A stretch of 64,000 bases of DNA. Origin: Schmidtea polychroa (taxonomy: Eukaryota). A model generated the notes under the pieces. It did not search any database, had not been told where the DNA came from, and was given only the letters and a program-made list of their open reading frames with translations. Position 1 is the stretch's first letter; every line of letters begins with the position of its first letter. Of the stretch, positions 13,439 through 62,414 are shown piece by piece. A program made the position numbers and the translations under genes. The stretch spans positions 1,240,001 to 1,304,000 of the forward strand of contig CM097885.1 of assembly GCA_044892525.1 (NCBI GenBank), read 5' to 3'.

Positions 13439-15480
13439 ATTTCAGACTAGGTGGTATTAATTTTTGGGTTGGTTTTGGGATTTCGCTTGTGTCCATGGAT
13501 ATTTTTATTCCAACAAGGGATTTAGGTTTATTACAACTACAACATTTAGAGTTGGTAGCATTATTTTTATTTTTAGCGTTATCTGCTCCATTATCAGTTG
13601 CATTAATTACGGGTAAGTTGTCTATCAGAGCGATGGCGTTTTTGGGATCATTAGAGAATAAGGATGAGTTGGACTGAAGGTTTTCGTTAAGGATAAATTT
13701 TTCGTTTAAAGGGGAGAGTTTATAAGAAATAGGGTTTATGAAAGAATACTCAACGTCATCGGTTACAGAGTTTCTTTGTATAGAAGCCTCTATGATATCA
13801 TGAGAGTCGTTATGGCTTACTGAGTCTATGGAGATGTGAGAGTTAGTTGTTTCGACGATAGAAGTATCGTTTAATGGAGAAGGTTTGAAGTATATGGGAT
13901 TTTTTTCCATTCATTCTGTTTATCTGGTCGAGTTGCCTAAAATAAAGGTAAATATTGGAGCTATTAAAGATAATTTTATCGTAGTCTGGAGGCTTCAATG
14001 GTACAGCGTCTTTTGCCTCCTGGCTTTTGTGATATTTTTCTCTTCTTCTCCATTGAGAACCCACCGAAAAAAGAAAAAATCAAATTTTATTTTATGCAAT
14101 TAACGGGGCACATGGCCAAGAAGGGGAGATGTTATCTGTAGCTTTTAGTTCAATAGACTGGATGTTAGAGTGTAATACTCCTACATCAAAACGTGGTTTT
14201 TCCTGAAAACTTCAGTCCTATTTGGAGTCTGGGATCCATTCTGAAGCTCCTGGCATTGGCTCATTCACATTTACAGGTAAGCATCATTGAGCAGAGTAGG
14301 GATAATCATGGCTAATCACAGACTTGATCAGCCATGGCTCGTATAGATGCATCTGGCATTCATTCATTCAGGTTAGTTTATAAGGAGAGGTAGACAAGTC
14401 CATCCTCTGTCTGGTGAGTATATGTCATTGAATTCTCATTGAATTCTGAGGAGGCATTCCAAACAGATCGGACAGATTTCGCAGTTATAGTAATTGTTAG
14501 GAGAAGCAGTTAAGGCTTCTGTCTGATTAGTTTACATGCCATTATGAGCACTAAAATCTTTCGTTTAAATCTATCCTTAATAGGATAGAGTTTATAATAA
14601 ATAGGGTTTATGAAAGAATCCTCAACGTCATCGGTTACAGAGTTTCTTTGTATAGAAGCCTCTATGATATCATGAGATTCGTTATGGCTTACTGAGTCTA
14701 TGGAGATGTGAGAGTTAGTTGTTTCGACGATAGAAGTATCGTTTAATGGAGAAGGTTTGAAGGATATGGGATTTTTCATAGAGTCATTATCCATATTAGA
14801 GTGTGAAAGGTGGTTAGAGTATTTCTTTGAGATGTTGGACTCATCTTTAATGGGAGTTGAAGTAATATTTGGGAGATAGAGATTATCAAGATTAGTATTT
14901 GATGAGGCACTGCTCGATAGTTGGACATCATCGCAGTCTTCATCATCAAGATCACAGGTATTAGTTTTATTGGTAGGAGGGTTTAAGTAAAAAGGAGTAT
15001 TATTATCCGACGAAGCTTTAAGGACTGGAGTGATAGGAGTTGTAGCTGAGATTGAGAGTATTGGCCTTGACAAGGTGTTTGTTGTCAAAAAGTCTCTTGA
15101 TAATCGAGCAGATGAGATAACAGGTGTTTTTTTATGAATATTTCTATTATAATAAGATTTTGATAATTTAATATTAGAATTAGTGAATTTAAAAGATTTT
15201 AATATTTTATTTAGGCTTGAAGGTTTAATGGTATTCATCTTTTTAGGTGAATTGGGGATATCGCGGTTATGGTCTATAAAGGTGGTGATTGGTTTTGAGA
15301 AGTGGGATAAAAGATTAAAGGCTTTTTAATAGTTTTAACGTTGACGAAATTGTCAATATTTAGAGGAATGATAGGTTTAGAAGAGTGAGATCTTAAAGGA
15401 TAGAGAACTAACGGTTTTATGATAACGGGTTTATTTGAAGCAGTGGTGTTATAGGGCTTAATAAGGATAGAGTAAAGGCT
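13439..15480 (-). mobile_element. Fragments of NeSL/Utopia-like non-LTR retrotransposon family B (N-terminal ORF pieces and probable 3' end)
   Basis: 13439-14390 is near-identical to 49620-50570; ORF 14510-15238 overlaps the peptides of 47286-47603 and 49046-50092. Confidence 0.8.
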
Positions 15481-18522: not shown

Positions 18523-20756
18523 CATCAGTTAAATTTTAAATAAAAATTAATTTTTTTTTAATGACTGTTAGGTTAATAATTAAGTAATTGGTTTAATTTT
18601 AGAAGACTTTGAAATGCATTTGACTAAATAATTTTTTTCAATAATTTTCTAAGAATATTTACACATTGATGAACTTTTTTAAAAAAACATAAGGTAAGAA
18701 ACCAGTTAACCTTATCAAGAACTTTAAATTTACTTGATAATTTACAGAAATAATATACAAATTTTAATTTACAGAAATAATTTACAAAATAATAATACAG
18801 AAATTTATGATTAAGTTTGCTTTTATGAACAATCAATATATATCATCTCCAGTTAGGTATTTGATAGGTGAAATATTTGTAGTAAATAATAAGTTTATTA
18901 TGTCTTTGTTACATAACTCGACTTTAGCGTCAAAATGTGTTTTTAAAATAAATTTTAATTTTAAAATACCGCAATGTAATATATTAATTTTTTCCTACCC
19001 TTCCTTGATTTTGATTGGTTAGAATTTGTTCCTATAAACAATAATAATCTATAAACAATAATAATCTATAAACAATAATCAATCATTAGTCACATTTAAC
19101 AAATAATTAACCTTTAAAAATGAATTCTTTAATAGAAAACGTTATGAATGTTCGAGAAAAAATTCAGGAATTTGGTAAAATTTAATTTATTTATTAATTA
19201 ATTTATTAATTAATTTAGATAATATTAATGAAGACAATTTAAAATCGAAGATTAAAGGAAATTTGAAAAGAAAAAGTAAACATAATTTTTAATTTATTAA
19301 TTTAATTAATTAATAATTTAGGTAATACGAATAAAGAGAAAAAATATGTCAATGTGTCAATAAATCGAAATGAAAATTTACAATGTAAGTTTTGATTACA
19401 TTTTATAATTTAAAGGAAATTTAATATAATTTTTTATTTAAGTAAATGTTAATATTTTTAATTTAGTAAATTTTTATTTTTTAGTAAATAAAATTTGTAA
19501 AATAATAATAATTTGCAAATTTTTGCGTAAACATTTATTAAAATCTTTCATTTAAATTATATATTTTTAATAAATTTTTATTTTATAGGTATACTTTATC
19601 CAAATTATTGTTCATCGAAAAAACATGATAATAATTGCCATTCTATAATGGAGAATTACTACACGAAAAAATATTATAATAAAACTTATTTTATATGTCC
19701 CGTATGTAAGACTAGTGACCCTGTAACATATAGCGTTTTTTATAATAAACATAAAAATCATTTAGATAGGTTTAATTTTAAAAAAGATAGTGTTTTTAAA
19801 AGACCCTCAACTATAGAAAAAAATAATACAAATAAAAAAATTAAATTAGATACTTCTTCTTTTGAATCCCAGGTCGGATTAGAGGTTGAATCCCAGGCTG
19901 GATTGTCTTTTGTTGAATCCAATGATGGATTGGTTGTTGAATCCCAGGACGGATTGTCTTTTGTTGAATGCCACGTCGGATTGGTTGTTGAATCCAATGA
20001 TGAATTATTCACTTCCTTTGATTCTTGGGATGGATTTAATATAATACAAATAGGTGGAAATGTATCGACAGTACAAAGAGATTTAAGAGGTACCCATCAA
20101 ATATTAAGCTTAAATACAGCGACTTAAATATAAAAGAAGTAATATTTCCTGAACAACTAATAATAAAATTACGAGATATTATTAACGAATAAGGCTCCGT
20201 CAAAATTCAATTCGGAATAATAATCGAATTTGAAAAAGACGGGGAAATAAAGGTTAATAATATCTCAAATTATGCAAAGCCTTTAACTGCATCATTTTTT
20301 GATCAAGGCATTAAGGAACTAAATGAGAAAATTACTAATATTACTGAGTTAGGAAGCAGTTGGAATATAAAAAATATTACTGAAATACATTTCACCATAA
20401 CAAAAATAAGTAGGTTAAGTTGATTAAGTGGTAGGAGTTTCATTGAAACACCTACTTATCTAAAAAATAAATATTGTTTAATTAATATAAAAAACACTGA
20501 TGATTCATGTTTTTTATATAGCATTTTAGCTATTTTAAAATATGATGAAGTTAGTAGTTATGCTAGAAATAGGACATCGAGTTATAATTTATCTGACTTA
20601 GTATACGACCCGTTAGAATTACCTATGAAATTAAAAGACATTAGGAAATTTGAATCTAAAAATTCGGGTTTAATAATTAATGTTTTTTCATATGATAATA
20701 GCAAACAATTAACTGATAATTATGTATTAAAACATTCACATTTAGATATTATACAT

Positions 20757-23037
20757 CAGGGGTGCCCACTAATATTTCTAGGAGTGCTACATTCACATCC
20801 AAAATGTGTATGCGATCTACGTTTTTAATACTTACATAATATTTACCTACAATGCAATAAATTCATCACAATAGAACAAATATATGTCAAAATATGGAAA
20901 ATTAAACTATGTAACTATTTATTATAAAAAAATGTAACTTAGGAAATCAAATTTAATGAAAATTATTGTTATATAGAACTTTTCGATGTTGATGCTCTAC
21001 ATTGGGTTGAATCCACTAGATTTTTGTAGTTTGGGATATAAGTGCTAAGACAACTTCTTAGGCTGGATTCCAAATGGTCATCTGTTAATGTTGCTCGGTA
21101 CTTTGACTTAATAATTTTCATATGTGAAAATGCAGACTCACATAAATAAGTTGAACCAAAAAAAGATACTAAATTTTCGAAGCATTTTTTCAAGTTTGAA
21201 TATTTATCCTCTGATAGATATTTCCATACATTTGGTTCGGAAGATCTTGATTTAATGAAGATATCATTTTGAAGTGTGATTATTTCCATTTCAAGTATAG
21301 GGATATCCATTTTAAACAAAGTTGAAATTGAATCTGCAACAATTTCTGGCTTTATTTTTGGATTAAACGGAAAGGACATAAATGCAGCCACAATTTCAAG
21401 TTTCTTGAAGTCTTGAAAACGTCTCTCGAACTCTAAAACCAAAATTTTGATCTGTTCGGCATATCTCGTAATATTAAAGTTGACATTTTCAGATTCTTTT
21501 AATTGTGACAAATTATTTGGAAAATAACTTAAATTTTTGTCTTTTAATTTTGGTAATAAGTAAATGAAGCTTTTGTATAAATGCAATGATTGAACTTATC
21601 ATATCGAATATCAATTTATCCTTACGATGTAAGTCGAGATTTAATTCATTCAGAATTGCAGTAATATCTACTAAAAATGCCAAATCCAAGAGCCAAACAT
21701 CATCTTCCAATTGCTTGAACTCATCACCTCTTGGGGCAAGGAACAACTTAATCTCAGAAAGCAAATCTCTAAATCTTTGTAAGAATTTTCCTCTACTTAG
21801 CCACCTTACATCTGAATGCATCAGTAATTCAGCAGGACCTTCGCTATTACTTTCTTCAATTTGTAATTTGAAAAGTCGTCTCTGAAGACTTCTTGCACGA
21901 ATCGAGTTAGCAATTTTGAATGTTATTTCCATAATATCTCTCATATTCAGAATTTTAGCACACACGGCTTGTTGATGAATAATACAGTTGTAGGAAAGAA
22001 AATCTGGGAATTCACAATCATTCCTACAATATGCTATAAATCCGTTGTGACGCCCTGTCATAGCTGGTGCGCCATCTGTTGTTATTGATACAAGCTTACA
22101 AATTTGGAGCTGAATGCTGTTGGCATAAGCTTTAAAATTCTGAAATATATCCTCACCTCGAGTTTTACTTTTGAGTGGTATAATTGTTAATAATTCTTCC
22201 TTCGTAGAAAAATCTTTAAAGACCATTCGAATAAAAATTATAAGCTGCGAAATATCAGCCGCATCAGTTGATTCGTCTGCTTGCAATGAAAATGCAGTAC
22301 AATTTCCTATGTCTAACATTAACTGATATTTTAAATTGGTACTTATTTCTTGGACTCTTCGTGTAACTGTATTACGGGACAATTGCATATCAGTAATAGC
22401 AGAAATTATATCTGATTTATTTTTAAAATCACAAAATAATGATTCTGCCGCTTCTAAAAATGCTTCTTTTACAATTACTCCATCACTAAAAGATTTCTTA
22501 TTTTTTGCCAGAATGTAGCTTACTCGGAAAGATGCAGCTGTAGCTGACTTTGATTTGGATGCTAGCTTCGTAAAAAATGACTGTTGAAAAAAAATGCATG
22601 TTTTCAGTTCCATGATTTTAGACTTGCGTAGTTCACTGTCAAGTGGATAATCAACTGCAAAATTCTTATGAATTGTCTTGAAATGCCTTTCCAAATTCCC
22701 TCTTTTTGGTAATGAAATAGTAGCTTTACAAATTAAGCAACAACATTTACCTTTAATCATTACAAAAAAGTACTCCTTCTCCATTTCTTCGCTATAATGA
22801 TAAGTCTTGGCTTTTCTATTTAGCATTTTTTATTTAGCATTTTTAAACAAAATTAATTTAACAAAAAAGCTTAAGAAAATTTTTCACTTTGTTACACAAA
22901 AATTTAAGCATAAAACAGAAATTTTATATAAAATCTAAATTTATATAAAAAATATTTAAAAAATATTTATGAAGATCTACTAAAAAATCCTTCGCGATCT
23001 ACCGGCTAGATCGCGATCGAACTTATGGGCACCCCTG
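20757..23037 (-). mobile_element. Buster-type hAT DNA transposon (2281 bp) inserted in pPolB
   Basis: Perfect 12-bp TIR CAGGGGTGCCCA; 8-bp TSD TTATACAT (20749-20756 and 23038-23045). The empty site is present in the other pPolB copies. Confidence 0.97.
20969..22826 (-). pseudogene. hAT transposase (GTF2IRD2/EPM2AIP1-like), one frameshift near 21550
   Basis: BED-like CLIC...HFKTIH, QADES, TTDGAPAM, CIIH, VRWLSRG and STYLCESAFS motifs spread over two overlapping ORFs. Confidence 0.95.
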
Positions 23038-26000
23038 TTATACATCGTTCCTAAGTTTTAAATGGAACTGTAATTAATTTACTACTATTAAATAAAGGAA
23101 ACAATTTCCATTACGTTGCTATAAGTAATTTAAATAGGTTACTGAATTGTGGTATCAACACTAGTTGTCCTACACGCATACGTTCATTATGGTGCCATCG
23201 GTGTTTGAATGGGTTTAGGTATAAACACGCACTGGAAAAACATGAAATATTATGTAAACGTAATCAATTAGGAACAACTCTTTACACTTTCCCTCAAAAT
23301 AAATTATTGCAGTTTACTGACTGGTCGAAAACAGTAACTCCTCCTTTTGTAGTTGATGCCGATTTTGAGGCTATTTTACCTTCTGATAATGTTCATTTCC
23401 AACGACACATGCCAATATCTGCTGGTCTTTTACTTGTAAATAACTTTGACGGATCTAAATCTTATCAACAGTTCATAGGTTTAGATTGCGTCGAGAGTTT
23501 TTTAAGTGCTATAGAGGATATAGCATTAAATAAGTTTCTTCCTTTTTATTATAAAATGGGTAGGAAACCTATGATTAAATTAACGAAAATTGAACAACGT
23601 CAATTTGTTAGTGCATCTGTTTTTTATCTTTGTATGAAATCTATCGTTGATCCTGTTAGAGATCACGATCATTTTACGGGGAAATACTTGGGTGCAGCTT
23701 GTAGCACATGTAACAAAAATAAGAAAATAAATAAAATTTTGCCTATCGTATTTCACAACTTGAAGGGATACGATATGCATCATATACTTAAATACGGATT
23801 AAATAAATTTAAAAATTGGACTTTAGGTTGCATCCCAATAACGACTGAAAAATTTATATCTTTGATTGCGCATTTAGGCAAAAGAATTGATTCTTATCAA
23901 TTCATTGATTCTTATTAATTTGTTAATGATTCTTTAGCTAAAGCAGTCAAAACTTTGAATTCTTAGCTTTTTACTAATTCTGTTTTTTCTGGTACTATAG
24001 TTTCTGAAAAAGGAATCTTCCCTTATAATTTCGCTACATCTTTAGATATTCTCCAAACTACTTATGAATTACCACCAATCTGGGAGGGTGTTACTGTGCT
24101 TTAGTATGAAAAAGCTCAGGAGATTTGGGTAGAAACTATTTGCCTAATTTTATTAGATTATATGATGATCTACTTAAAACTTGATTGTTTTCTTTTGGCT
24201 GATTTCTTTCATCAGTTTCGGTTGAAATCTATTGCTCACAATAGATTGGAACCATTGAATTATTTCGGAATTCCAGGTATGTCTTGGTCTTCTGCATTAA
24301 TGTCTTTAAATGAACCAATTGAGCTCATAACTGAAAACGAAATGTTTAGCTTTTATGAGGGTGGAATAAGAGGCGGTATTACTTTTGTGAATTAGCATTA
24401 CGTAAAAACCGATGAGAACACCGAGTTACTTTATATAGATATTAATAATCTTTATGGTTGGGCTTTAAGTCAATCATTACCTTGTGGTGAATTTAGTTGG
24501 GTTCTTGATGGATTTGATTTAATAATGGATGAAAGTAGGAATTTAAATCTTGATTCTTTGTCTTATGGATACACTCTTGAAGTTGATCTTGTAATTTCTT
24601 CTGAGCTAAATGAGAAGTTGGATAATTTCCCTGAAGCTGCTGAAATATTGGGCATGTAAGATTAAGTGAATTAAATATTGGAGAAAATGTTGGAGAAATT
24701 GTTGGAGAAAATGTTGGAGAAATTGTTGGAGATGAATTTGATGAAAATGTTGGAGAAGATTTTGGAGAAGATGATATCGATATCGATGACGTTATTTTGT
24801 CTGATGAGGACTAATTTTATTAAATAAAAGTTTATATATATACATTTGTTATTTTTTTGGTAAATATTTATGTTTTTTATGTGTCTAGTTAATGTTTATA
24901 TGTTTTGTTATGTGTCTAGTTATTTTTATGTGTTGTATAATATTTGGTTGATATATTATTATTATTATTTTTATTATTATTTCATAAACATTTCCATTAA
25001 AAATTACCATTGAAAAATATTTCATTAAAATTTCTATTAAAAATTATTCATAAAATGTTATTTCATAAAAACTTTCATTAAAAAATTTCAATTGTTAATA
25101 AATTTAAAAATCTTACTTTAATTTACTTATTTAACTTTAATTTTTTACCATTGATTACTTAATTTTAAAATTTGGACCTTAATTAATTTTAATTTAATTT
25201 TTTAGAACCTTAATTTAGTTATTTCTGCCGATGAGAACACCGAGTTACTTTATATAGATATTAATAATCTTTATGGTTGGGCTTTAAGTCAATCATTACC
25301 TTGTGGTGAATTTAGTTGGGTTCTTGATGGATTTGATTTAATAATGGATGAATGTAGGAATTTAAATCTTGATTCTTTGTCTTATGGATACACTCTTGAA
25401 GTTGATCTTGTAATTCCTTCTGAGCTTCATGATAAGTTGGATGATTTCCCTGTAGCAGCTGAAAAAATGAAACCTGCTGGGTCTAAGGTTAAAAAATTAT
25501 TATTAACTCATCTTCCAAAATCTAATTATGTGATTCATTGGAGATTATTAAAATTATATTTGGAACTTGGTGTTAAAGTAACACGTGTAAATAGGGGTGT
25601 AAGATTTAAGCAATCTCCAATTTTTAAAAAATATATAGATACAAATACAGAATTAAGGTCAAAAAGCATAAATAATTTAGATAAAAATTATTATAAATTG
25701 TTAAATAACAGTTTATACGGCAAAACAGTTGAAAATTTAAAAAGAAGAATGAATCTTCGTCTTTGTACAACTGCCGGTAAATAAGTAACATATTCTTCAA
25801 AGCCGACTTTTAAAAAACTATTAAAATAGATGATAATTTAATTGCGGCATTAGTGAATTCAGATTCTATATGTTTAGATAGACCAAGTTACATTGGTCAA
25901 TCTGTACTTGATCTATCTAAACTTAGAATGTATGAATTACAATATATTATATTGAATATAAGGATCTAGAATCATTTCGCAATGAGTTTAATAATAAAAT

Positions 26001-26658
26001 TAATATCGTTGCAGGTGATACAGATTCTTTTTTCCTCGAAGTCATTAACTGTAAACTTGAGGTTCTTTTACCTGCAATGATTCGAGATAATTTATTAGAT
26101 ACTTCCAATTACAATAGTTGTCATTCCTTATATAGTAAGAACTTTGATTCAGTCATTGGAAAGTTCAAAGACGAGAATAAAGGTCTTAAATATAAGGAAT
26201 GGGTTTTTCTTAGACCTAAATGTTATAGCTTGTTGGGTGATGAGGAAACAAAAAAGGCTAAAGGTGTAACATTGAAAGGTAGTGACATAAAACATCAGTC
26301 ATACCTGGATTGTTATAACACTAACCAGATTTTTTCGGTTCCTCAGACTAAAATAACAAGCAAAAATCATCAAATTTTTACAATTAAAAATACTAAAATA
26401 GCACTAACTAACAAAGATGACAAAAGGGTTTGGGTGGGAAAAAATACTAGTCTTGCATATAGGCATGTAAGATTAAGTGAATTAAATATTAGAGAAAATG
26501 TTGGAGAAATTGTTGGAGAAAATGTTGGAGAAATTGTTGGAGATGAATTTGATGAAAATGTTGGAAAAGATGAGGAAGAATTTATTGAAGATGTTGGAGA
26601 AGATTTTGGAGAAGATGATATCGATATCGATGACGTTATTTTGTCTGATGAGGACTAA

Positions 26659-27773
26659 TTTTATTAAATAAAAGTTTATATATATACATTTGTTATTTTT
26701 TTGGTAAATATTTATGTTTTTTATGTGTCTAGTTAATGTTTATATGTTTTGTTATGTGTCTAGTTATTTTTATGTGTTTAGTTAATTTTTTATGTGTTGT
26801 ATAGTATTTGGTTGATATATTATTATTATTATTTTTATTATTATTTCATAAACATTTCCATTAAAAATTACCATTGAAAAATATTTCATTAAAATTTCTA
26901 TTAAAAATTATTCATAAAAGGTTATTTCATAAAAACTTTCATTAAAAAATTTCAATTGTTAATAAATTTAAAAATCTTACTTTAATTTACTTATTTAACT
27001 TTAATTTTTTACCATTGATTACTTAATTTTAAAATTTGGACCTTAATTAACTTTAATTTAATTTTTTAGAACCTTAATTTAGTTATTTGTGCCCATTCAT
27101 TACTTTAATTTAAAATTTTGGACCTTGATTTACTTTATTTTAATTTTTTAGAACCATTATTTACTTTAATTTAAAAATTTGAACCTTACTTTACTTAGTT
27201 GAGCCCTTAATTAACTTTAATTTTAAATTTTGAACCATTATTTACTTTAATTTAAAAATTTGAACCTTAATTTAGTTATTTGAGCCTATTCATTACTTTA
27301 ATTCAAAAATCTTAGCCCATAATTTACTTTAATTCAAAAAAATCTGAACCTTGATTTACTTAAATTTAATTTTTTAGACCCATCATTTACTTTATTTTTA
27401 AAATTTAGACCCATAATTTGCTTTATTTTAAAAATATACTATGCGTTTTTAATGTAAACCACCTTTTCTATTGAAATTCTCATGACCAAGGAGACCCCTT
27501 CACTGTAGTCTGAAAAATCCATGCTTTTTTATTGAAGACTACCTTTTTCTATTGAAATTCTCAGGACCAAGGAGACCCACCCAAATAATATTTATACTTG
27601 GCTTGTTTATTGAAAAAAAATTTTTTGTATTTTAAATCCCAGAAAAAATACATTGGAGCGTACGGCAACAATTATGTATTCAAAAAATGTCTACGGCAAA
27701 AATTATGCAATCAAAAGTTTGCAACATTTTTACCCCCCCCCCTATTTCTCCCGCGGGCCCCTAACTACCTATT
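26659..27773. repeat. Right terminal region of the pPolB element, ending ...GCGGGCCCCTAACTACCTATT
   Basis: Reverse complement of 62960-63912; subterminal AT-rich repeats are shared in inverted orientation with 40710-41270. Confidence 0.85.
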
Positions 27774-28500
27774 CGCGCATCAGAAAAGATGCAATCCAGC
27801 AGAGTATTGTTTTCAAGACAACCATCTACTGGTTTCAATCCCTTCTGTGCATTCGAATCCCAACGGCAACTACTTACTTTTGCCACTAAGATCTTATTAA
27901 GTGTCCTAGTTAACACTGAGTTAACGGAAAAAAAATAAAAATCACCTGAATTTTTAGGGGTTTCTACTTTTAGGATTAATGAGGTTCGTGCTGTCTTTTA
28001 AGGTCATGAAATATGTCTGGAAATGGGCGTGGGGCTTGTGGGTTCTCCATCGCCTGCTCCAGGCCCATCTCCTTCATCCTGTCTTCTAACTCTTTAAAAA
28101 CTGCTTTATATTTTTTTATTATCTAGGTGCTTGCGAATAGATTCCTTTGAAAGTTCCAACATCCAAGGTGAAGTATTTCTAGAAGGTGAGAGGAAGACTG
28201 TAACGATTTTTAAGGTGAAGTGGAGCCATGAAGAGCTCTTCTTCATTACTTTAGTAATAAGCAAGATTTTTTGTATAGTTTCCTCAAGATAGTCTCAATA
28301 CGTAAGGTGCGATGGGCTTTAGATATATGGACTCCACGTCCCCTCAGCGTTAAGAAAGGTAAAAAGCAATATTCACAGACAAACTACTGTTCCACATCCC
28401 TCTCCAGTTTTGTAGTGTTGTTATTTCCTGTCATTTCATATTTATTTTGTTCGTGGAAGTTCATTCGTGTTGGATATCCTCCAACATGATACCCAACTGG
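27774..28500 (-). mobile_element. R2-like retrotransposon 5' part, internally deleted, cut at the RT D-A-R codons
   Basis: Manual translation: C2H2 finger FVCEYCFLPFLTLRGRGVHISKAH, Myb-like EEELFMA...KESIRKHLDNKKYK, RT ARTSLILK..P..GDF..VNSVLTRTLNKIL...QKGLKPVDGCLENNTLLDCIFSDAR. Confidence 0.85.
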
Positions 28501-28919
28501 CCAACAAGTAAAAATAGTAAAAGGGGACCTCACGAATGAAGTGGTGTGGGGAATAAAGAACAAAATGCGACGAGGGCTAATATATCAATAGTAAACTTTA
28601 GTAGTCAAATAAAAAAAATTTAAATTTGAACTTTTAGTTCATAAAACTTCATATCTTAAAAAAAAACAAAAACAAAAAATATTTTTAAAACTTTAAAAAT
28701 TAAAACTGTACTGTCATTCTTGTCATCGCGGGATTGATGACATTTTATAAGCATATAATAATAATAGTAATGATAATAATAATAATAATTATAATAATAT
28801 TAGTAATAATAATAATAATATTAGTAATAATAGTATTAATAATATTTCAACTAAATACTAGGCAACACACAAAATTTAACTAGAACAAAAGTAAAGATAA
28901 AAAATTTATTCAATAATAT

Positions 28920-30700
28920 TCTTCATGATCTGTTAATATGACCTCTTCTATAATCATCGGTTTCTACATCAATTTCTATTTGTTCATTTTCTCCATCGGT
29001 TTCTCAATAATTAACCTTATATAATCTTACATGTCCATATGCAAAACTAGTATTTTTCCCCACCAAAACCGTTTTATCATCTGCATTTGTAAGAGCTATT
29101 TTTTTATTTTTTATTGTATATATTTGATGATTTTTTGATGTTATCCTTAATTGTGGTATTGAAAAAATTTGTTTTGTATTGTAAAAATGTAGATATCACT
29201 GATGTTTTAAGTCATTACCTTTCAATGTTACTCCTTTTGCTTTTTAATTTCATCTTCACCTAACAAACTATAATATTATGGCATAAGAAAACCACATTCT
29301 TTATATTTAAGACCTTTATTCATATCTTTGAATTTTCAAATGACAGAATCAAGGTTCTTACTGTATAAGGGATGATTTGGGTTATAATTTCAAGTGTCTG
29401 GAAGGTTATCCCTAATCATCATACATTATTTAATAGTAAATTGTTCCTATAATAATCAAAACTATTCATAAAATTGTTGTTGCTAAATCTTATTCAAATT
29501 TTACTTATAGGTTTCCTACCCATTTTTTAATAATAAATGTAAGGTTAAATCCTCTACAGCACCTAACAGTATTACAAAATTACAAACTAAAATTTAATAA
29601 AACTTTTTAATAAATTTAATAAATTAAAACTTTGATTAGCATGCATCCAATCAAAATTTAATAAATGAAAGTATTTAATTATCTAAATTTAAAAAATGTC
29701 TAATAAAAATAGCACTAATATAAATAGAAAATAGTACATCTGTTATTGGAATGACATGTAAACCTCCTGTTCATTACCTTCAATATAATATGTAATATTC
29801 GAAATATCCTATTGCTTATTCTTTTAAGGTATTTATTTTTAATTATCTCTATTGATTTTTGGTTGGAACAAGTTAATTTAAAAGCCTAATCAAAAGTCTA
29901 TCAATATTGCAATGTTCAACAATGTCCTTGAATAAATTTACTGTATAAGGAATGATTTGGGTCATAATTTGAAGTGTCTAGTAGGTTATCTCTAATCATC
30001 ACAGGTGAAAGAATATCAAGAGAAAAAATTTTAATTTCCAAGATTAATTGATATCAATGTCCCCCAGCAACGATATTAATTATATTACAATATATTTTTG
30101 TAACTCTTCATGATGCAGCTGATATATTCTAAGTATCGATAGATCAAGTGCAGATTGTCCAATGTAACTTGGTCTATTTAAACATATAGAATCAGGATTT
30201 AACAATGCTGCTATTAAATTATCATCGATTTTTATTGATTTTTAAATGTAGGTTTTGATGTATACGAGACTATAAAACTTCTTCCGCTTAACCTACTTAT
30301 TTAATTATTTCAGTGATAGTGAAATGAATTTCTGTTATTTTATTAATTAACAAGCTACTTCCTTGTGATTTTTTAATACTTGTGATTTATACTTGTTATT
30401 TGTGAAATTCTTTTTTAGATTTTTTCATTTTTTCATTTTATTCCCTAATTTCTTCATCGAAAAATGTATCAGTTAAAGGTTTTGCATTATTATACGTAAC
30501 CTTATTCGTTAATGATATATTAATTTATCTATTAGTGATTCAGGAAATATTATTTCTTTAATATTTAAGTCACTAGTGTTAATACTTAATATTTGGTGGT
30601 AACTCTTAAATCACTTAGAACAATTGGTAAATTTTCTCCTATTTTTATATTATTTAATAGTAAATTGTTCCTATAATAATCAAAGTTATTCATCAAATTG
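28920..30700 (-). pseudogene. Highly degenerate, deleted pPolB copy (third variant)
   Basis: Reverse-strand similarity to 25800-26480 (DDK, KAKGVTLKG, LDRPSYIGQS) and to the N-terminal region. Confidence 0.75.
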
Positions 30701-32036
30701 TTGTTGCTCAATATTAGTCAAATTTTTAAAATTTTATAAAAAATTACAATCTAAAATTTAATAAAAACTTTTAGTAAATTTATTAAATTAAAACTTTAAT
30801 TAGCATGCATCCAATCAAAATGAAAATATTTAATTATCTAAATTTAAAAAATGTCTAATATAAATAGAAAATAGTATATCTGTTATTGGTATGACATGTC
30901 ATTACCTTCAATATAATATGTAATATTTGAAATATCCTATTACTTATTATTTTAAGGTATTTATATTTCATTATCTATATTATTGATTTTTGGTAGGAAC
31001 AAGTTAATTTAAAAGTCTATCAATTCAGTATTCAAATTGATATTATTTGGGATGAAAATAGAAAATATCTTGGAGAAATTCTTCGATTAATTAATAAAGA
31101 CAAGTATTTTAACTAAAAACTTTCATTTATCAACTGCGAAAAAGATTGTAAAATTAAGATAGTTGAAGGTAAAAAATCTAAAATTCAGATACTTATTCAA
31201 GGACTCAAGATAAATGGAGTTATAATTAAACCAATTTGGAAAATTAAAAATGTCTATGAATAAATTTATGAATAAAATTTGAGTTTTTTATTGTTATTTA
31301 AAATATATTTTAAAGAAATCTATAATTTGGTTTATAAAATTATTAGTTGTCTGTAAAGTTAATATTTGACTATAAAATTAAGATTTTTAATTTGTCTATA
31401 AAAGTTTAATGTGGACAATATATAATTAAAATACTCTAAAATTATCATAATAATTAATAAAATGGAATAAAAAAAATTTTGCATAGGATATGCTCTTATA
31501 AAAAATTTTATCAATTCAAAAATATATGTAGCATAAGATAAATCATTTAAAAAAATTTAAATAAATTATAATATATAAAAAAATCCAATTAAAATATTTA
31601 TAATTCAAAAATATATAGCATAAAATAAATCATTTAAAAAAAATGAATTAAAATTCAAAAAAATATATACATTTGTTTTCATCTTTTTCTTTCTTGTTTT
31701 TCTTGTGTTTATTTTTTTCATGAAAATTTTCTGTCAAAGTTTCATGAATATTTTAAGCTATATTTATCTAAAAAAAATTTTAAATTTAATTCTTTAACAA
31801 AAAGATTATATATTTACCATCGTTATGAAAGAGCTTTATTTCGCCAAAAATCCAGAACATATGAAAAATTAATGAATAAACAACAATAAAATACAAGGTA
31901 CATGATATAAATCTTTATTTATAGTAAACGACAACGTCTAACTAAATGATCATAAGCAGATAAGCACGGAATACAGTTAAAGTAGTCGAATTCGTGGATT
32001 CGATAATGGTTCGACTTCCCAGAAACTACTACTATT

Positions 32037-32180
32037 CGCATCGGCAAAGAGAGTGTCCAGAAACCCTTTCTCCCAGCGTGTTCCTGCCACTGGGATTACC
32101 CGATATTTGCTAGACTTTTCATAGAGTTGCATAGGTTTCACGAAAGTATAGCATGAAGTGTACCACAGCGATGAATAGGG
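32037..32180 (-). pseudogene. Diverged R2-like RT fragment ending at D-A, abutting an (AAT)AGTAGTAGT terminus
   Basis: IPVAGTRWEKGFLDTLFADA aligns without gaps to KPVDGCLENNTLLDCIFSDA; upstream TLHAILS resembles TLNKILV. Confidence 0.6.
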
Positions 32181-33179
32181 TTGTATAGTTTTTATTTAAA
32201 AAATAGATTAAATGAATGAAATTGAAAGGAAATGAAAAGTTTAATTAAAAAGGAAATTAAACAAAAACTAAGGTTGGTGGATTTTAAAGATGAAGCAAAT
32301 CAAGTATGGAGAAAAGTATTATGTAGTGTCCACATAATAATAATCAAGTTTTTTTTACATTTATTAAATGGAAGAGTCGTTTGGATTTGCAGTAAAATAT
32401 AATAACGTTGACCCAAACATATTGATAAAAACAGCCGAACTTAAAAACCTAAATGAATTTCAACAAGTAAAAACTGCATCTCCTAATAGGAATATGTACA
32501 AGCACCCTTAAAAGACTTAAATTAGATCCTAATTGTTCTAGTTTTTATAGATATGACATTCCATTAGAATAGTATATAGTGAGGACTCCAGTGCACTTTC
32601 AAGGTCATGGAATATCAAGATCAAATATAGACCAATCGAATCATTTATTTTTTAAATTAACATTTTATTTAATTACTTCTTTTTAAATTTTTTCTTTTTA
32701 ATTTTATTAATTAATTATTTTATTATGTTTTATTTTAATTTATTACATTTAATTAAATTATTAGTTTATTAATATTTTATTTTAATTACTTACGCTATTT
32801 AATTATTATTATTATTATTATTTTTAAATAATTTATTTATTTTTTAATTTAAATTTTATTTAATTACTTCTATTTAATTTTTTTTCTTTTAAATTTTCTT
32901 AATTAATTATTTTATTATGTTTTTATTTTAGTATTATTTAATTTATTTATTTATTATTATTATTATTATTTTTTTTTAATTATACATTTACATTATATTC
33001 TAACAAGAGGTAAATTATAACAATAATATTTCAATTTCTAATTAAAATTTTATTCAAATTGAATAATTACTAATTAAAATTTTATTCAAATTAAAATATT
33101 ATTGTTATAATTTAACTTTTGTTAGAATATAATGTAAATGTAAAATTTAAAAAAAATAATAATTTTAAAAAATAAAAGG

Positions 33180-33914
33180 TCAAGGTCAAGGTCAATGTCA
33201 AGGTCAAGGTCAAGGTCATTTTTTTTAAATAAGTGATCCTGAGGGCCCATACTTTTTTTCATCCCAAAGATTTATGTTCCCGCCAACAGATTTTATTGAT
33301 CGATAGCTCATCGTAAAGCCCAGTGCAAGACCTTTAAGTTGAATTAAAGATTCCTATCATCCGATGACTCATCATATTTTTAGAACAAAGACAATGACTC
33401 ATTAAGGTAATTCTATTTTTAGTAATAAAGACATCCATTTTTAGTAACATTTGAATCTATTTTTAGTAACATTTTTGAACAAAGACAATGATTTAACCGA
33501 GGACTCATCGTTTTTAGAACAATGAATCAGCCGGTGACTAATCAGATTTTAAGAACGATGACTCATTCGATGACTCATCAAAATTTTAGAACAAAGACAA
33601 AGGCTCACCCAATGACTCATCACATTTTTAGAACGATGACTCTTCATAGTTTTAGAACGATGATTCATACGGTGACTCATCATATTTTAAGAACAAATAT
33701 AATGACTCATCATTATTTTAGAACGGTTACTCATTCGATGACTCGTCAAGGTCATTCTATTTTAAGTAACAAAAACATCTATTTTTAGTAACATTTCGAT
33801 CCGATGTTTAATTATCGATAATAATTTAATTTATCATTATTATTTGAAAAGATATTAACCCCCGCGTGGAAGATGTTATTTTCAAAATTATTATTATTAT
33901 TTTCAAAGTTCTAT

Positions 33915-34012
<98 letters not shown>

Positions 34013-34455
34013 TGCAATTATTCATAAAACTTAATTTCTACATCAATTTCATGATTTTCAACATTTTCATCATTTGCATGAATATTTTAATAATTTTCAA
34101 TATTTTTAATATTTATTTACTATTATTATTATTTTAAATTATTATTTTTACAGTTATTTTCAAAGAATTATTATTATTATTTGCAAAGTTCTAATTATTA
34201 TTTTTTTTAGAAGTTTCATTATTATTATTTACTTACATATTCATAAAACTTAATTTCTACGTCAATTTCATGATTCTCAACTATTTCATCATTTGCATTT
34301 TTTAATAATTATCAATATTTTCATAATTTTCTACATTTTCAATATTTTCACGATTTTCATGATTTTCAACATTTTCATGATTATTTCAGGAACTTTTTCA
34401 TCAAATGTTGTTCAAAGTATTATTTTCAAAGAATTATTTTTAAAGTTTTAATCAA

Positions 34456-34519
<64 letters not shown>

Positions 34520-34566
34520 GAAAAACCTAAAATATTTTTTACACATACATACACAAATCATTAAAC

Positions 34567-34617
<51 letters not shown>

Positions 34618-35700
34618 GCAAATATTAGTCAAAAACATAAAATATTTTTACACACACACAACTCATTAACAGTTATTATTATCAATATTAGTGAAAACCT
34701 AAAATAATTTTTACACACTAAGTTATGGGGTAGAGAATTATTATATGTTTGCAGTATTCTGTGTTTTCCTTTACAAGAAATTTTTGATAAGGAGCGAATA
34801 ATTCAATTTTACATATACATTCTATATACACATACATTGTTTAACATGGGTGTATATACTCCTAGTCTATCCGACAAGATATTCTGTCCCCCTATGGGTA
34901 TTGCTAGCAAGGGTACTACTCACATTCAACATGTCGCAATGGTATATTAATTAAGGTTAGTAAATAAAACTTATAACACATACTATTTTTAATAATATTT
35001 AAACGATAAAAATCAAGACAAGAGAGGACAAGGCAAAGTTTATGCATTTAGTATTGCCAGGCCTAATGAGCAGTGACCAAATATCTGTGCCTGAAAGACA
35101 CGGTGGATATTTGTTCGCGTCCACAAAGGTCGTGGAGTCAGAAGAACCTGGGCATTATAGTTTTCTGTACGGAACATTACGCCTAGCATGGGTAGTCAAC
35201 TACCAGCACATTCGAAACGTATAAAATTACATTACAAAATACATGCGTCATTGGCACTATGACCAAATTAATTAATGTTTTCACTAACAACAATATATAT
35301 TTACAGAGGCCTCCCACTAGTTGGATTACAACCGCCCATCACGACGATCAGCTTCTAAATATATATTAATTAAGGGATAAAGAGCACCCACCCAACCCTA
35401 TTATATTTAATTTACAAAGGGTTTCTCGCTCTTCTGCTGGTAATCTATCTCAAAATTATTATCTCCATCGGGGCATTTGATATTGATTTCATGGAATACA
35501 TCTTGCAAATTGGACGTATTTCATAGTTTCTGATGCTGCGTCAACTTTCATTGCTAACATTTGTATTGCTTTAAAAGCAATTAATTTACATTATCTAACA
35601 TTTTATCGTCACAGGCTTGATAAATTAGGCAACTGTTATTTGTGGTATACTTTATCAATATAATTTCTTATCAATTCCCACCATAAAACACAGATACCTA

Positions 35701-35778
<78 letters not shown>

Positions 35779-37830
35779 GAATTAATTCATGTCTTACATT
35801 AATAATAATATTCTTCAGGAATGACGAGTACTTTACTTAATTGCTAAAACGTCGATTTTTCCCATTTTTCTTGACCTTTGTTGAAAGAAAGTTTACATAA
35901 TTTAAGTCTGATAAGTAAACATTCATGTTGAAGGACACCCACAATCAGCTAATTTATTTAAAAAATCCAGAACATAACTCCTTTAGTGTTTCACTATTTT
36001 TTCTGGTTCATCTTCTTCATAATCATATAAATCATTTTCTTCATTACTAAGTAAAATAATTAAAATATTGTAGTAAATTCTTTATTTACTTACTTTATGG
36101 ATACTAAAACGAAAGAAATAAAGTTATATCAAAAGTATATTTAAATAATTTAAATTTAAATAATTTAAATTTAGTTATTTAAATATATTTAAACAATTTA
36201 GTTATTTAAGCATATTTAAACATTAATATTATTATATAGTATAATTTTATATAATTTTATATAATATTATAATTTTATATATTCTAAATTTAATAAATAA
36301 AATTAATTAATTATAATTAATTAATAATTTAATAATAAAAAATTTATAATGAAGATTCTTTGAATTAAAAAATATTCTGTTAGTATTTCCAGGCAGAAAA
36401 AAACGAATTCAATAATTAAAATCTTAATTTTCAAGTTATATATTTAGGGTTGTGGCCAGAAGTTAATCGCCATCTAATCATTTGTTTTCAATTTCGCTCA
36501 TTTTTGTTCAAAACATTCAGGTGAGTTGTTATCTGAAAAGTTTCTTTGAGCTCAGTTTTGTTAAAACACTCACGGTATTTTTGAGGGACGTGACACTGGA
36601 AATAAATTAACAATGAGTGGTCATCCATACATGTTGTTGGTCTGAGCTATCGATTTATTTTAGAAATAGGTATATTAAAAACATTTAAGGTATCATTCAG
36701 TAAAATAATATAGTATTTTTTAGTTAATTTATAAATAACAGTATTTTGATATATTAATAAAGACCATATACTCCGAGTTTATCCGACAAAATATTCTGTC
36801 CCCTTATGGGTATTGCTAGCAAGGGTACTGGTCACATTCAACATGTCGCAAGAGTATATTAATCAGTTAGAAATTCTTAGGTAATTTAGTGAGATGATCA
36901 GAAATTCGTGAATATTTTAAATGTAACTTTACACTAATGTCAAGCGACTAATTTATTGGTTAACTTTGTAGTCATTTAAAGCAAAACTTAATTTATTCAT
37001 CTAATGTTCGTTACAATAGTTAATAATATGAGAAAAATATGGTCATTATTCATTGATAATTTTAAATTCTTTATCATTTGTAGTAAATTTGATTGAGGCA
37101 AAAATAATTAAAGGAGTCATAATAGAAATATGGTTAGAAATAGAAATAATTTTAGACCTTAATTTACTTAATTGAAATTTTAGACCTTAATTTACTTAAG
37201 TTTAAAAATATATACCATAATTTACTGTAATTGAAAAATTTGGACCATAATTTACTGTAATTTAATTTTTTAGAACCATAATTTACTGTAATTGAAAAAT
37301 TCGAGCGACTAATTTATTGGTTAACTTTGCAGTCATTTAAAGCAAAACTTAATTTATTCATCTAATGTTCGTTACAATAGTTAATAATATGAGAAAAATA
37401 TGGTCATTATTCATTGATAATTTTAAATTCTTTATCATTTGGAGTAAATTTGTTTGAGGCAAAAATAATTAAAGGAGTCATAATAGAAATATGGTTATCA
37501 TTTAACCAATTAAGGGGCTTATTAGTTAGAAATATATATATTATAAAGTAACAATTATTTTCTAATTTAATTAGATGATCATTAGACGTAATATATCTTT
37601 GCGAGAAATTTATAATGTTTGAGTAACCAAAACATGGATATTTTGTGCGATAAATTTATGAATATTGGTTAATTTTGTTATTTTTAGTCATTTAAAATAA
37701 TATTTAGCAAAGGTAATTTAGCAAAATATCATTGTAAGATTTATCCACCCGATAACAATATTCCTTCAATAGATTAACTGATATTCAACCTATTTAATTT
37801 CTGGAAATATAATTAAAATCATAAATTTCC
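33180..37830. mobile_element. Third, diverged copy of the fold-back element arm (same orientation as the left arm)
   Basis: 33230-33400 resembles 355-520; 34500-37135 and 37300-37830 resemble 2300-5180. Confidence 0.85.
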
Positions 37831-38236
37831 TTCAATAAAGTTAAATCAAAAACGCAAGAGACGCTCAAGCAAATCAAGAATTAAAAAATAAACACATTGC
37901 AGAAACAGAATTTATATAAAGTCAAACCCTGACTCCTACAACAGGTTCAAGTCTAAATAAAATTCAATCAAAAGCAATAACACTAGTAAGTAGGACTCCA
38001 ACCCACTTTCAAGGTCATGAAATATGTCCAGATCAAATAAAGGTCAATTGAATCATTTATTTTTAAATTAACATTTTATTTATTTACTTCTTTTTAATTT
38101 TTTCTTTTTAATTATATTAATTAATTATTTTATTTTGTTTTATTTTAATTACTTACTTTAGTTAATTTTTAATTTATTACATTAATTAATTTCTTAGTTT
38201 ATTAATATTTTATTTTAATTACTTACGCCATTTAAA

Positions 38237-39904: not shown

Positions 39905-41390
39905 ACCTTGTTTACCGAATATAGAAGTTTAAAATGTAGACCATTGATTACTTTAATTTAAAAATGTATCCCTTAATTTACATAATTTCCATCTAAAATT
40001 ATTTCAAAAAAATTTTTTTTCTAAAATTGTCATTGAAAAATATTTCATAAAAGTTTTCATTTAAAATTTTCATTGAAAAATATTTCATAAAAATTTTTTT
40101 TAAAAATTATCTTAAAAATTATTCCATAAAAATTTCCATCTAAAATTACTTAAAAAATTATTTCATAAAAATTTTCATTAAAAAATTTCAATTCTCAAAC
40201 ACCTTCTATTATTTTGTTAATAAATTTAAAATCTTACTTTAATTTGCTTATTACATTACTTATTTAAAAATTATTACTTTAATTTACTTATTTAAAATAT
40301 TTGACCATTGATTACTTAATTTAAAAATTTGGACCTTAATTAACTTTAATTTAATTTTTTAGAACCTTAATTTACTTTAATTTTAAATTTTGACCCTTAA
40401 TTAACTTTAATTCAAAATTTGGACATTAATTGAAAATTTTAGACCATACTTTTCCATAAAATTGTCATTGAAAAAATTTTCATTTCTCAGGCGCCGTTTA
40501 GTAGGTGGTTAGGAGCCCGCTTCAAATGCAAGCCGTTTTTTTGCTGCAACATTTGATTGCGCAATTGTTGCAACTTGTTTTTTTTTCTATTGAAAATACT
40601 TGAAAAAAAATAATCGTAGCTTACTGTACAACAAAAAAAATGAGTTGCAACAATTGCGTAATCAAAATTTGCAGCAAAAAAAAGTTGCGCAGACCCCCTC
40701 CCCCCCCCCTAAAATTTTCAATTAAGGTCTAAAATTTTCAATTAAGTAATTAAGGTCTAAATTTCTCAATTACAGTAAATTATGGTTCTAAAAAATTAAA
40801 TTACAGTAAATTATGGTCCATATTTTCAAAAACAGTAAATTATGGTATATATTTTTAAACTTAAGTAAATTAAGGTCTAAAATTTAAAAGTAAAGTAAAT
40901 TTCAATTAAGTAAAGTAAGGTCTAAAATTTTCAATTAAGGTCTAAAATTTTCAATTAAGGTCTAAAATTTTCAATTAAAGTAAATTAAGGTACAAATTTT
41001 GAATTAAAGTTAATTAAGGGTCAAAATTTAAAATTAAAGTAAATTAAGGTTCTAAAAAATTAAATTAAAGTTAATTAAGGTCCAAATTTTTAAATTAAGT
41101 AATCAATGGTCAAATATTTTAAATAAGTAAATTAAAATAATAATTTTTAAATAAGTAATGTAATAAGCAAATTAAAGTAAGATTTTAAATTTATTAACAA
41201 AATAATAGAAGGTGTTTGAGAATTGAAATTTTTTAATGAAAATTTTTATGAAATATTTTTCAATGACAATTTTAGAAAAAAAAATTTTTTGAAATAATTT
41301 TAGATGGAAATTATTTAAATTAAGGGATACATTTTTAAATTAAAGTAATCAATGATCTATATTTTAAACTTCTATATTCGGTAAACAAGG
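39905..41390. repeat. Inverted pair of subterminal repeats (~39905-40445 and ~40920-41390) enclosing an element terminus at 40500
   Basis: CCTTGTTTACCGAATATAGAAG at 39905 versus CTTCTATATTCGGTAAACAAGG ending at 41390. Confidence 0.85.
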
Positions 41391-59000: not shown

Positions 59001-59076
59001 TTTATTTTAATGTGGCGAATGAAAATTTCTAAATTGACGATTGTGGCTACAATCAAATTTCTGTTGGACACCGCTG
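56007..59076 (+). mobile_element. Buster-type hAT transposon (3070 bp) inserted in the family A RT
   Basis: Imperfect 15-bp TIR CAGTGATGTACAACA / CAGCGGTGTCCAACA (12/15); 8-bp TSD TTCTATAG (55999-56006 and 59077-59084). Removing it rejoins the RT frame. Confidence 0.96.
56953..58902 (+). CDS. Intact hAT transposase, 649 aa
   Basis: Uninterrupted ORF with BED-like CILC...HYQQMH, ALDES, TTDGAPAM, CMIH, VRWLSRG and TTWVCESTFS. Confidence 0.96.
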   Translation: MDKYLKRHSDTDSSARQEEATGSTQLEPKKRDWKKVCRKFNGKWELEFAVMEQNQKTVCILCNKTFNDNKVDSIKKHYQQMHSEFDCKFPVGKQVRTNEITRLKSKLEGQQSFFKRFLTTSELITLASYKTAWILAQKRKPFSDGELIKEIVLSIMEILLENYEEPLKKDIMQKIENMQLSHQTIALGMQDLMKNINKQLLQHLKSCICFSLALDESCDIRDTAQLIFWIRLISKDLEIYEEMLTIRGMKDRTRGVDIFEIFKSVAEDFQLDMTKLVSVTTDGAPAMLGLKSGFVGILKQQTHVCLVASFHCMIHVENICAQLSGTDILKNMMDLVVKVVNYIRSSATNHRQFLELLKEIEGTEFKDLLYFTNVRWLSRGKVLERFVSLLNPIRNFLQEKEMLINFSEIENKEWQCDLIFLTDITLHINELNLKLQGKGKLICDLAQYIREFVSKLKLFVTQLKDYDFTHFDNMEKYKEDTNFNIQRYVGWLQKLQEKFEERFIDVEKFRPAFQLMQDPFHFDITNSELSKDIANLLSLDRRDFEADMLLLQSQINYSRNDESILMMWTRLLKSNEFVVLNSAIAKLLSMFGTTWVCESTFSAVTFIKSKYRSNISDENLEAEFKCAVRVRFTPDFKGIVQEKNCQASH

Positions 59077-62000: not shown

Positions 62001-62414
62001 TCGGTTTATCTTTTGGTTTGGGGTTGTTATCAATATACACTTTTTATATATTGGTTTGTCATCATTTGATACTAAATTTGATATGGTGGATTGGTTAGTG
62101 CGAGCTAAAAACTTTTTTCTTGGTTTTGGTATTGGTTTTGTGGCGGGCGTCTTTTGGTGTGGGGATTCTATCGGCGTGGTTGTATTAGGGGGTTGTGGTA
62201 AATCGGTATTTGGTTGTGGCGTTATCGGTTTGTTTAACGGTTTGTTCCACTTTACTAACTGTGCCTTCACGGCTTCGTGCTAGGCCAGTGAGCTAATCCT
62301 CTCATCCCTGCATTCTTCAATTCTTTTAAACCAATCACGTTTCGCAAATAGTATCATCACCGACTGGGATGGTACACACAGCCCCCCCCCATTGTTTACT
62401 CTTAATAAATGATG

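Follow-up and report, generated by a model that had tools for sequence, protein, structure and literature searches.

A Maverick/Polinton-like element in an R2-clade reverse transcriptase gene of Schmidtea polychroa: probably one insertion, later copied by segmental duplication

Does a DNA transposon of a planarian seek out R2 retrotransposons as its target? This question is raised by a 64,000-nucleotide stretch of the Schmidtea polychroa genome (GenBank assembly GCA_044892525.1, contig CM097885.1, here C1; positions C1:1240001-1304000, subsequently designated the window), in which an R2-clade reverse transcriptase (RT) gene is interrupted by a Maverick/Polinton-like element carrying a DNA polymerase of family B that is protein-primed (pPolB). 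From two junctions at 27773 and 62960 of the window and a supposed third one at 32036, a preliminary description had proposed a self-synthesising element that targets R2. We find that the insertion is real and that its history is ordinary, i.e. one hit followed by segmental duplication.

At the first junction (right-end type, designated j2), the terminus of arm A of the element, AATAGGTAGTTAGGGGCCCGC, is read on the - strand of 27753-27773, and the + strand continues with CGCGCA at 27774-27779 (TGCGCG on the RT strand); across the boundary, the + strand reads ...cccgcgggcccctaactacctatt up to 27773 and CGCGCAtcagaaaag from 27774 onward. At the second junction (left-end type, designated j1), CGCGCA at 62954-62959 directly precedes the terminus AGTAGGTAGTTAGGGGCCCGC at 62960-62980, the + strand reading ...aaatttagttCGCGCA up to 62959 and agtaggtagttaggggcccgcggg from there. 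The terminus and subterminal repeats of arm B occupy 62960-64000 (+). The 21-mer terminus pattern has three matches in the window (27753, 40500 and 62960), compared with none in each of 100 shuffles. On the - strand, the open reading frame (ORF) at 27761-27997 ends with ...NNTLLDCIFSDAR, followed across the junction by IGS, so that the flank right of 27773 ends with ...LLDCIFSDAR; the - strand ORF at 62836-63090 contains ARTKFKNVAIAFVDMKKAFDSINHDSI immediately behind the junction, and the flank left of 62960 starts with ARTKFKNVAIAFVDMKKAFDS. When the 1011-aa ORF of an intact relative (L057) was used in tblastn, 27773-27997 aligned with its residues 363-437 and 62416-62958 with its residues 436-616. 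The flanks therefore adjoin in one RT, their overlap being the two codons of the duplicated hexamer.

Empty sites were sought in the whole 781-Mb assembly using the 400 nt left of 62959 as query (40 of 44 candidates scored), and 30 places were fetched. Upstream of the match, the element terminus is present in 4 of these and continuing R2 sequence in 26. In 21 of the 26 uninterrupted R2 places (L047-L067) the sequence runs ...cctttctga TGCGCG aactaaattt, with TGCGCG occurring once only. As the hexamer is single in uninterrupted R2 copies and double at the window, this is a true insertion with a 6-bp target-site duplication (TSD), i.e. an R2-clade RT gene is interrupted by a pPolB element whose terminus is of the AG(T) type. 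The preliminary description had reported both the hexamer beside the two termini and the flanks that rebuild one RT frame, and in these points it was correct to the base.

By sequence comparison, the interrupted gene is an R2-clade RT whose collinearity with R2Bm extends along nearly the full gene. For the intact relative, matches were obtained to the R2Bm structures 8gh6 and 8ibw (E 1e-117 and 2e-115, residues 30-988) and also to 9nl2, 9nl3 and 9dou, which are annotated as R2 proteins. Inspection of its ORF by eye revealed a Cys/His motif at the C-terminus and a nuclease-like region, KPDL..., which we take to be the C-terminal zinc motif and the restriction-like endonuclease. The 5' part of the interrupted copy lies at 27774-28446 (-) and corresponds to residues 9-162 and 363-437 of the intact relative (tblastn, ORF); the 3' part lies at 62217-62959 (-) and corresponds to residues 436-616 and 713-769, including the motifs FVDMKKAFD and YADD (RVT_1, E 1.7e-12; tblastn). 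The copy thus lacks about residues 163-362, a deletion private to the junction copies, and everything after about residue 769.

With at most one mismatch, pattern searches detected j1 at four places (C1:326232 (-), 346907, 484657 and 1302948) and j2 at seven, all on the - strand (C1:392909, 600471, 908103, 972328, 1055996, 1199812 and 1267760). All of them are confined to C1:0.33-1.30 Mb. In maximum-likelihood trees of the R2 flanks, calculated from 31 rows for the 3' side (R2-C) and 26 rows for the 5' side (R2-N), with L001/L046 and likewise L002/L045 being the same place fetched twice, the junction-bearing rows form one group in both cases (support 100/100), on stems of 0.074 and 0.084 and with tips of at most 0.009. 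The 727 nt right of 27773, including the private deletion, align end to end with 99-100% identity only at the seven j2 places, every other R2 copy being split at query positions 488/503 (40 of 80 candidates scored). R2 sequence ends about 0.7 kb from the junction, and the flank stays collinear well past that point among the j2 copies: the distance between the terminus and the stretch 31750-32330 is 3,977-3,996 bp in five of the seven j2 places and 7,043 bp in one, the stretch not being found near the remaining one, and the right flank at 28816-38000 is collinear with C1:1060106-1069173 (17.9-kb query, one candidate scored). Moreover, the six local pPolB fragments have in common a 192-aa frame that includes residues 1-5, the other 144 scored matches starting at residue 6. 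One clade, a private deletion, a collinear flank and the same broken pPolB establish single descent of the junction copies, which very probably go back to one insertion, later copied by segmental duplication of the ancestral locus. Shared diagnostic variants in the R2-flanked copies, here the separate clade and the private deletion of residues 163-362, had been named beforehand in the preliminary description as the outcome speaking against independent hits in R2.

Of 1480 candidates for a 441-nt query across j2, 40 were scored and gave 41 matches, of which 7 cross the junction, 1 covers R2 only and 33, including one extra short piece, cover the element only (81-97% identity). Of these 33, 31 start at query positions 221-234, the terminus being at 228, and the other two start at 259 or cover 230-302. 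Accordingly placed ends were also seen with the terminal 1,174 nt, for which alignments beginning at query position 3 were obtained at places on C1-C4. In three complete relatives that have the terminus AGTAGGTAGTTAGGAGCCCGC (ref1-3), the flanking sequence is AT-rich and the 6-bp TSDs are perfect, namely AATTAA, CTACTC and GATATC. Conversely, R2 copies are found uninterrupted, among them all 10 identical copies on small contigs and 11 further ones. The first 30 matches to the terminus pattern on C1 comprise 8 R2 junctions and 22 places that share one other flank, ...caggcgccgttt. The junction with this flank is itself amplified, partly in tandem arrays with a period of 4.4-4.6 kb (C1:982278-1009523 and 1212479-1221419). 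The third match in the window, AGTAGGTGGTTAGGAGCCCGC at 40500-40520 (+), is such another amplified junction; it is unrelated to R2 and has inverted subterminal repeats (I14, 99%) on either side. Among the junction copies examined, no case was seen of the element having entered different R2 copies independently at one and the same target. R2 targeting is thereby refuted: the junction copies are of one origin, element copies occur without R2, and 26 of 30 R2 places are intact at this site.

It remains to explain why the two junctions look alike. As the preliminary description had rightly noted, both carry the same pPolB end in opposite orientation, i.e. subterminal repeats and then a pPolB read toward the terminus, one arrangement being the inverse of the other, and their order is unlike that of one simple insertion, the right-end type junction at 27773 preceding the left-end type at 62960 by 35 kb. 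The first point finds its answer in the family. A 192-aa pPolB fragment gave more than 10,000 first-look candidates, of which 150 were scored; these are 95-100% identical, with open frames of up to 1,380 aa. A hand count of the 144 non-local matches found about 41 (-,+) pairs 6-31 kb apart and no (+,-) pair, and at all places common to both match lists, the pPolB fragments have termini about 2.0-2.2 kb to their outside. One example, C2:100731312(+)/100733417(-)/100744119(+)/100746692(-), measures 15.4 kb; further places with terminus and pPolB are C3:67853362/67855949, C1:268742163/268744817, C1:227738138/227740286 and C1:198375108/198377340. Judging by the coordinates of pPolB fragments and termini alone, it is usual in the family that one kind of arm, bearing a pPolB, is present at each of the two ends. 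With outward-facing pPolB at both ends as the norm, a single insertion yields two junctions with the same pPolB 3' end. As to the second point, seven j2 and four j1 places are spread over 1 Mb, mostly in the same orientation, so that one block ends and another starts within the window. Of the two alternatives offered in the preliminary description, one palindromic insertion that was later rearranged thus comes close to the data, and two independent insertions at the same base are not needed.

Among the competing explanations, the one that survives best accepts the insertion and ascribes the multiple copies and the j2-before-j1 order to misassembly of a highly repetitive region. The region is indeed full of near-identical repeats, tandem arrays and palindromes. 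However, the copies differ in a tree-like manner by point changes and indels (AAATTT versus AAAATT, TGCGCG versus TGTGCG, AATAGG versus AGTAGG) and are 93-98% identical over the terminal 1,174 nt, a pattern that would not result if reads of one locus had been collapsed or expanded. We therefore regard an assembly artefact as improbable.

Considerably less likely still is a site-specific R2 parasite, whose machinery would recognise the RT sequence around ...TCTGA TGCGCG AACT... and for which the 11 junctions would be independent hits. Such an element would account for eleven places cut at one and the same base and for a look-alike with three mismatches at C1:266295936, and its targets would be plentiful, given the many R2 copies and the ribosomal RNA fragment (12827-13476) in the region. 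However, the junction flanks are one clade on long stems, with a private deletion, the same DNA 4 kb away and the same broken pPolB; R2 is mostly uninterrupted (26 of 30 places) and the 33 element-only matches lack it; the TSDs of the relatives are unrelated; and the third junction at 32036 is not real (see below). Least credible of all are two separate elements in opposite orientations at the same base of two R2 copies, each giving one junction of the window, an idea suggested by the same kind of end at both junctions and by termini that differ at base 2 (AATAGG at 27773, AGTAGG at 62960), and contradicted by the family norm of like ends, by AGTAGG at the j2 places 392909 and 1199812, from which it follows that the A/G difference arose after duplication, and by R2 halves that fit as one copy with a two-codon overlap and are equally diverged from other R2 copies.

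Several observations weigh against one insertion followed by segmental duplication, or at least against its simplest form. No partner j2 is present within 41 kb downstream of the window's j1, and a search for further termini (up to five mismatches) within the 124 kb examined found none beyond the five known ones, leaving the window's j1 copy without a recognisable right end nearby. Five of the seven j2 places have no upstream j1, the history of duplication is too tangled for a simple tandem model, and the block order in such a repetitive region depends on the assembly. R2-flanked copies that are rare and of low similarity could have been missed, since only the best candidates were scored (40 of 1480). 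The j2 look-alike mentioned above has 3 mismatches in 26 nt (C1:266295936-266295961 (-), TTTTGATACGCG joined to AGTAGGTAGTTATG) and is known from this 26-nt match alone. It lies at the far end of the same contig, was not among the 40 scored of 80 candidates in the search with the 727-nt R2 flank, and is the sole remaining candidate for a second R2-type flank; another 3-mismatch look-alike, at C3:30449883, has a different hexamer beside the terminus. Finally, the assignment of the element to the Mavericks, made from sequence, draws on termini, TSD and pPolB only.

The arrangement of the copies along C1 includes two pairs of note. The j1 junctions at C1:326232 (-) and C1:346907 (+) face each other at a distance of 20.7 kb with the R2 3' flanks inside, which is an inverted segmental duplication amid otherwise direct copies. 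By coordinates, the foremost candidate for an undivided arrangement of j1, element and j2 is 346907(+)/392909(-), with 46 kb between the two.

The supposed junction at 32036 dissolved upon closer comparison. The stretch at 31750-32330 (-) belongs to the duplicated right flank and is no element end. An RT signal at 32036 was detected neither by Pfam nor by tblastn with two R2 proteins (E 1e-3). The 581 nt around this position have 8 full-length collinear copies (99-100% identity), present only in C1:0.60-1.27 Mb, and a relative at C2:77447299 with 72% identity aligns with query positions 215-460 and thus reads straight through the supposed break at 294/295. The LDxxFxDA resemblance at this place is best taken as chance.

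Taken together, we propose the following history. A Maverick/Polinton-like element would have inserted once into an R2-clade copy that was already outside the ribosomal DNA (rDNA) and decaying. The cut would have fallen between the codons for ...SDA and RTK..., with duplication of the 6 bp TGCGCG. In each of the long inverted arms, the AGTAGG... terminus would have been followed by subterminal repeats over about 1.1 kb and by a pPolB read outward, and the two arms may have been near-identical at the time of insertion. Integration was presumably catalysed by an rve-type integrase, provided from the centre of the element or in trans. Repeated segmental duplication would then have multiplied the locus and its surroundings within the first 1.3 Mb of C1, mostly in direct and once in inverted orientation, the order of these events being likewise conjectural. 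The window would accordingly comprise the right end of one copy (27773), its right flank, other material, and then the left flank and left end of another copy (62960).

In its present state, arm A (19432-27752, +) consists of a broken pPolB read toward the terminus and then subterminal repeats (PF03175, E 2.3e-13 at 25206-25784; tblastn). All on the + strand, the N-terminal part of the polymerase lies at about 19531-20748 and 23055-24389, the middle at 24402-24644 and 25206-25784, and the C-terminal part at 24653-24814 and 25936-26658. Compared with arm B, arm A has an extra internal duplication of 1,864 bp (repeat families D3, D5 and D13) and a nested hAT transposon at 20749-23046 (-), which has an 8-bp TSD, TTATACAT, inverted ends CAGGGGTGCCCA..., a hAT dimerisation domain and a zinc finger, and is missing from arm B as well as from a copy at about 45.2 kb. 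Arm B extends past the window to about window+67081 and contains a pPolB remnant on the - strand (inverted repeats I7, I16, I9 and I25). The arms are inverted repeats of each other over about 4.1 kb of arm B, with 89-96% identity. Genes for integrase, capsid, ATPase or protease were not detected in arms A and B by Pfam or tblastn. The N-terminal region of the arm-type pPolB weakly matches Endonuclease VII (PF02945, E values from 7e-4 to 7e-3) in four copies (window 44466-45803 (-); L031:659-1435 (-); L033:1793-3061 (-); L034:7659-9161 (+)), the profile positions being identical in all four, a similarity which suggests an HNH-type nuclease domain fused upstream of the arm-type polymerase.

What would have filled the centre between the arms? 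A complete young Maverick is located right of the window at window+67472-82493 (L031/L032). It encodes a pPolB of 931+512 aa with one stop between, six small ORFs, an A32-type ATPase (Pox_A32, 1.1e-8), an rve integrase with a PLA2-like domain and a double jelly-roll capsid (PF21738, 2.4e-25); its integrase gene, at window+78018-79286, is the only rve gene nearby. This Maverick was considered as the centre of the inserted element and rejected for now. It possesses inverted repeats of its own that are 99.8% identical, and its capsid gene is intact and 99% identical in all 96 other scored places (of 3,244 candidates), the arms differing from one another by 4-11%. As its polymerase and that of the arms have only 25-34% identity, it was treated as a separate element. 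Counting against this rejection, pPolB arms and capsid genes occur near each other more often than chance in two lists, e.g. at C1:97902359/97916930/97924325. A direct repeat of roughly 430 bp lies on both sides of the young Maverick (67051-67476 and 82436-82874, 92% identity), and is not explained by a 6-bp TSD mechanism.

Further features of the family were noted. In 16 of the about 41 pPolB pairs, the open frames of both arms are exactly equal in length, including truncated ones of 727/727, 822/822, 922/922 and 1008/1008 (e.g. C2:132856273/132865980, C1:109911700/109922595, C3:39186342/39194635), which suggests that the two arms of an element share mutations, either via homogenisation or because the palindrome formed recently. 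In two pairs, a terminus motif lies within about 150 bp of the centre of symmetry (C1:84530313 in pair 84523965/84536036; C1:87516348 in pair 87510765/87521675) and could mark monomers joined head to head. Tentatively, the family may be viewed as a polymerase-only, palindrome-shaped offshoot of the Mavericks, with two outward open pPolB genes, arms of about 5 kb or more and thousands of places in the genome; these properties would fit a copy-back (snap-back) genome that is replicated by a polymerase of its own, uses one arm to repair the other in the manner of adenovirus-type genomes, and borrows its integrase.

The three relatives ref1-3 are 13.4-15.6 kb long, most of this length being two inverted arms. 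They share no polymerase with the window (blastn). As a template for arms A and B they were tried and dismissed, as only the subterminal repeats are common (about 70-89%). The polymerase-less ref1 (13.4 kb) carries one BED zinc-finger ORF (PF02892, E 8e-12) per arm (L037:3603-4577 (-) and L038:77-1051 (+)), both read outward like pPolB in the two-polymerase family.

Other material in and around the window concerns R2 and rDNA. On small contigs, the 10 identical R2 copies are spaced at 16.5-17.6 kb (C730, C714), which in relation to an rDNA unit period of 11.6 kb, determined by a whole-genome search for large subunit (LSU) rRNA with 4 candidates scored, fits R2-bearing rDNA units. The window itself contains a eukaryotic LSU rRNA fragment at 12827-13476 (-; model positions 2389-3399, 420 bits), and hence rDNA debris is present in the region. 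Just downstream of the R2 3' fragment, a second and different non-LTR element is found at 54097-61849 (-). It has zinc fingers at the N-terminus, RVT_1 (55385-56083) and zf-RVT (54097-55437), and a hAT transposase gene (650 aa) at 56950-58902 (+) interrupts the RT of this element.

The case demonstrates how target specificity can be simulated when one insertion is multiplied by segmental duplication, and the junction copies provide dated markers for the duplication history of the first 1.3 Mb of a chromosome-scale contig. The remaining interest resides in the element family, whose two inverted arms are very long and each hold a complete gene for a protein-primed polymerase. Should the arms truly be homogenised, this family would be a natural system in which to investigate how the ends of protein-primed linear genomes are maintained within an animal genome.

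How does the element compare with known systems? The family of the interrupted gene is collinear nearly end to end with the R2 retrotransposon R2Bm, but the copy in the window is a dead fragment outside any intact rDNA unit, the target rather than the actor. With site-specific DNA transposons such as Ginger1, which according to the accessible text of PMC2836005 targets CCGG/CCGT, the element shares a short TSD of fixed length and presumably a DDE/rve-type integration chemistry. It differs in that no target preference is seen, the four independent TSDs (TGCGCG, AATTAA, CTACTC and GATATC) being different. The palindrome-shaped relatives ref1-3 have the same or a similar terminus and two inverted arms, but no polymerase, whereas the two-polymerase family keeps a long open pPolB in both arms. 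Polymerase genes in both arms, or R2 targeting, are not described in the open-access literature found by keyword. Polintons/Mavericks as such have been reported in planarians, as stated in the available portions of PMC8532177 and of a preprint (10.64898/2025.12.11.693146). For Mavericks/Polintons, the accessible text of PMC8097293 gives perfect 6-bp TSDs, (AG)3/(AGT)2 end motifs and terminal inverted repeats (TIRs) of 46-1,447 bp, and that of PMC10748475 a size of 13-25 kb, TIRs of 100-1,500 bp and TSDs of 5-8 bp. The element in the window resembles them in its 6-bp TSD, seen as TGCGCG doubled at the insertion and single at the 21 empty sites, and as a perfect 6-bp repeat in the three relatives; in its inverted ends with an AGT-type motif, both starting with AGTAGGTAGTTAGG...; and in its protein-primed polymerase, recognised by PF03175 and, in further pieces, by tblastn. 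It differs from them in its arms, which measure at least 4-5 kb and thus exceed the TIR ranges given in these sources, and which contain a whole pPolB gene each, so that two polymerases are read outward from one element.

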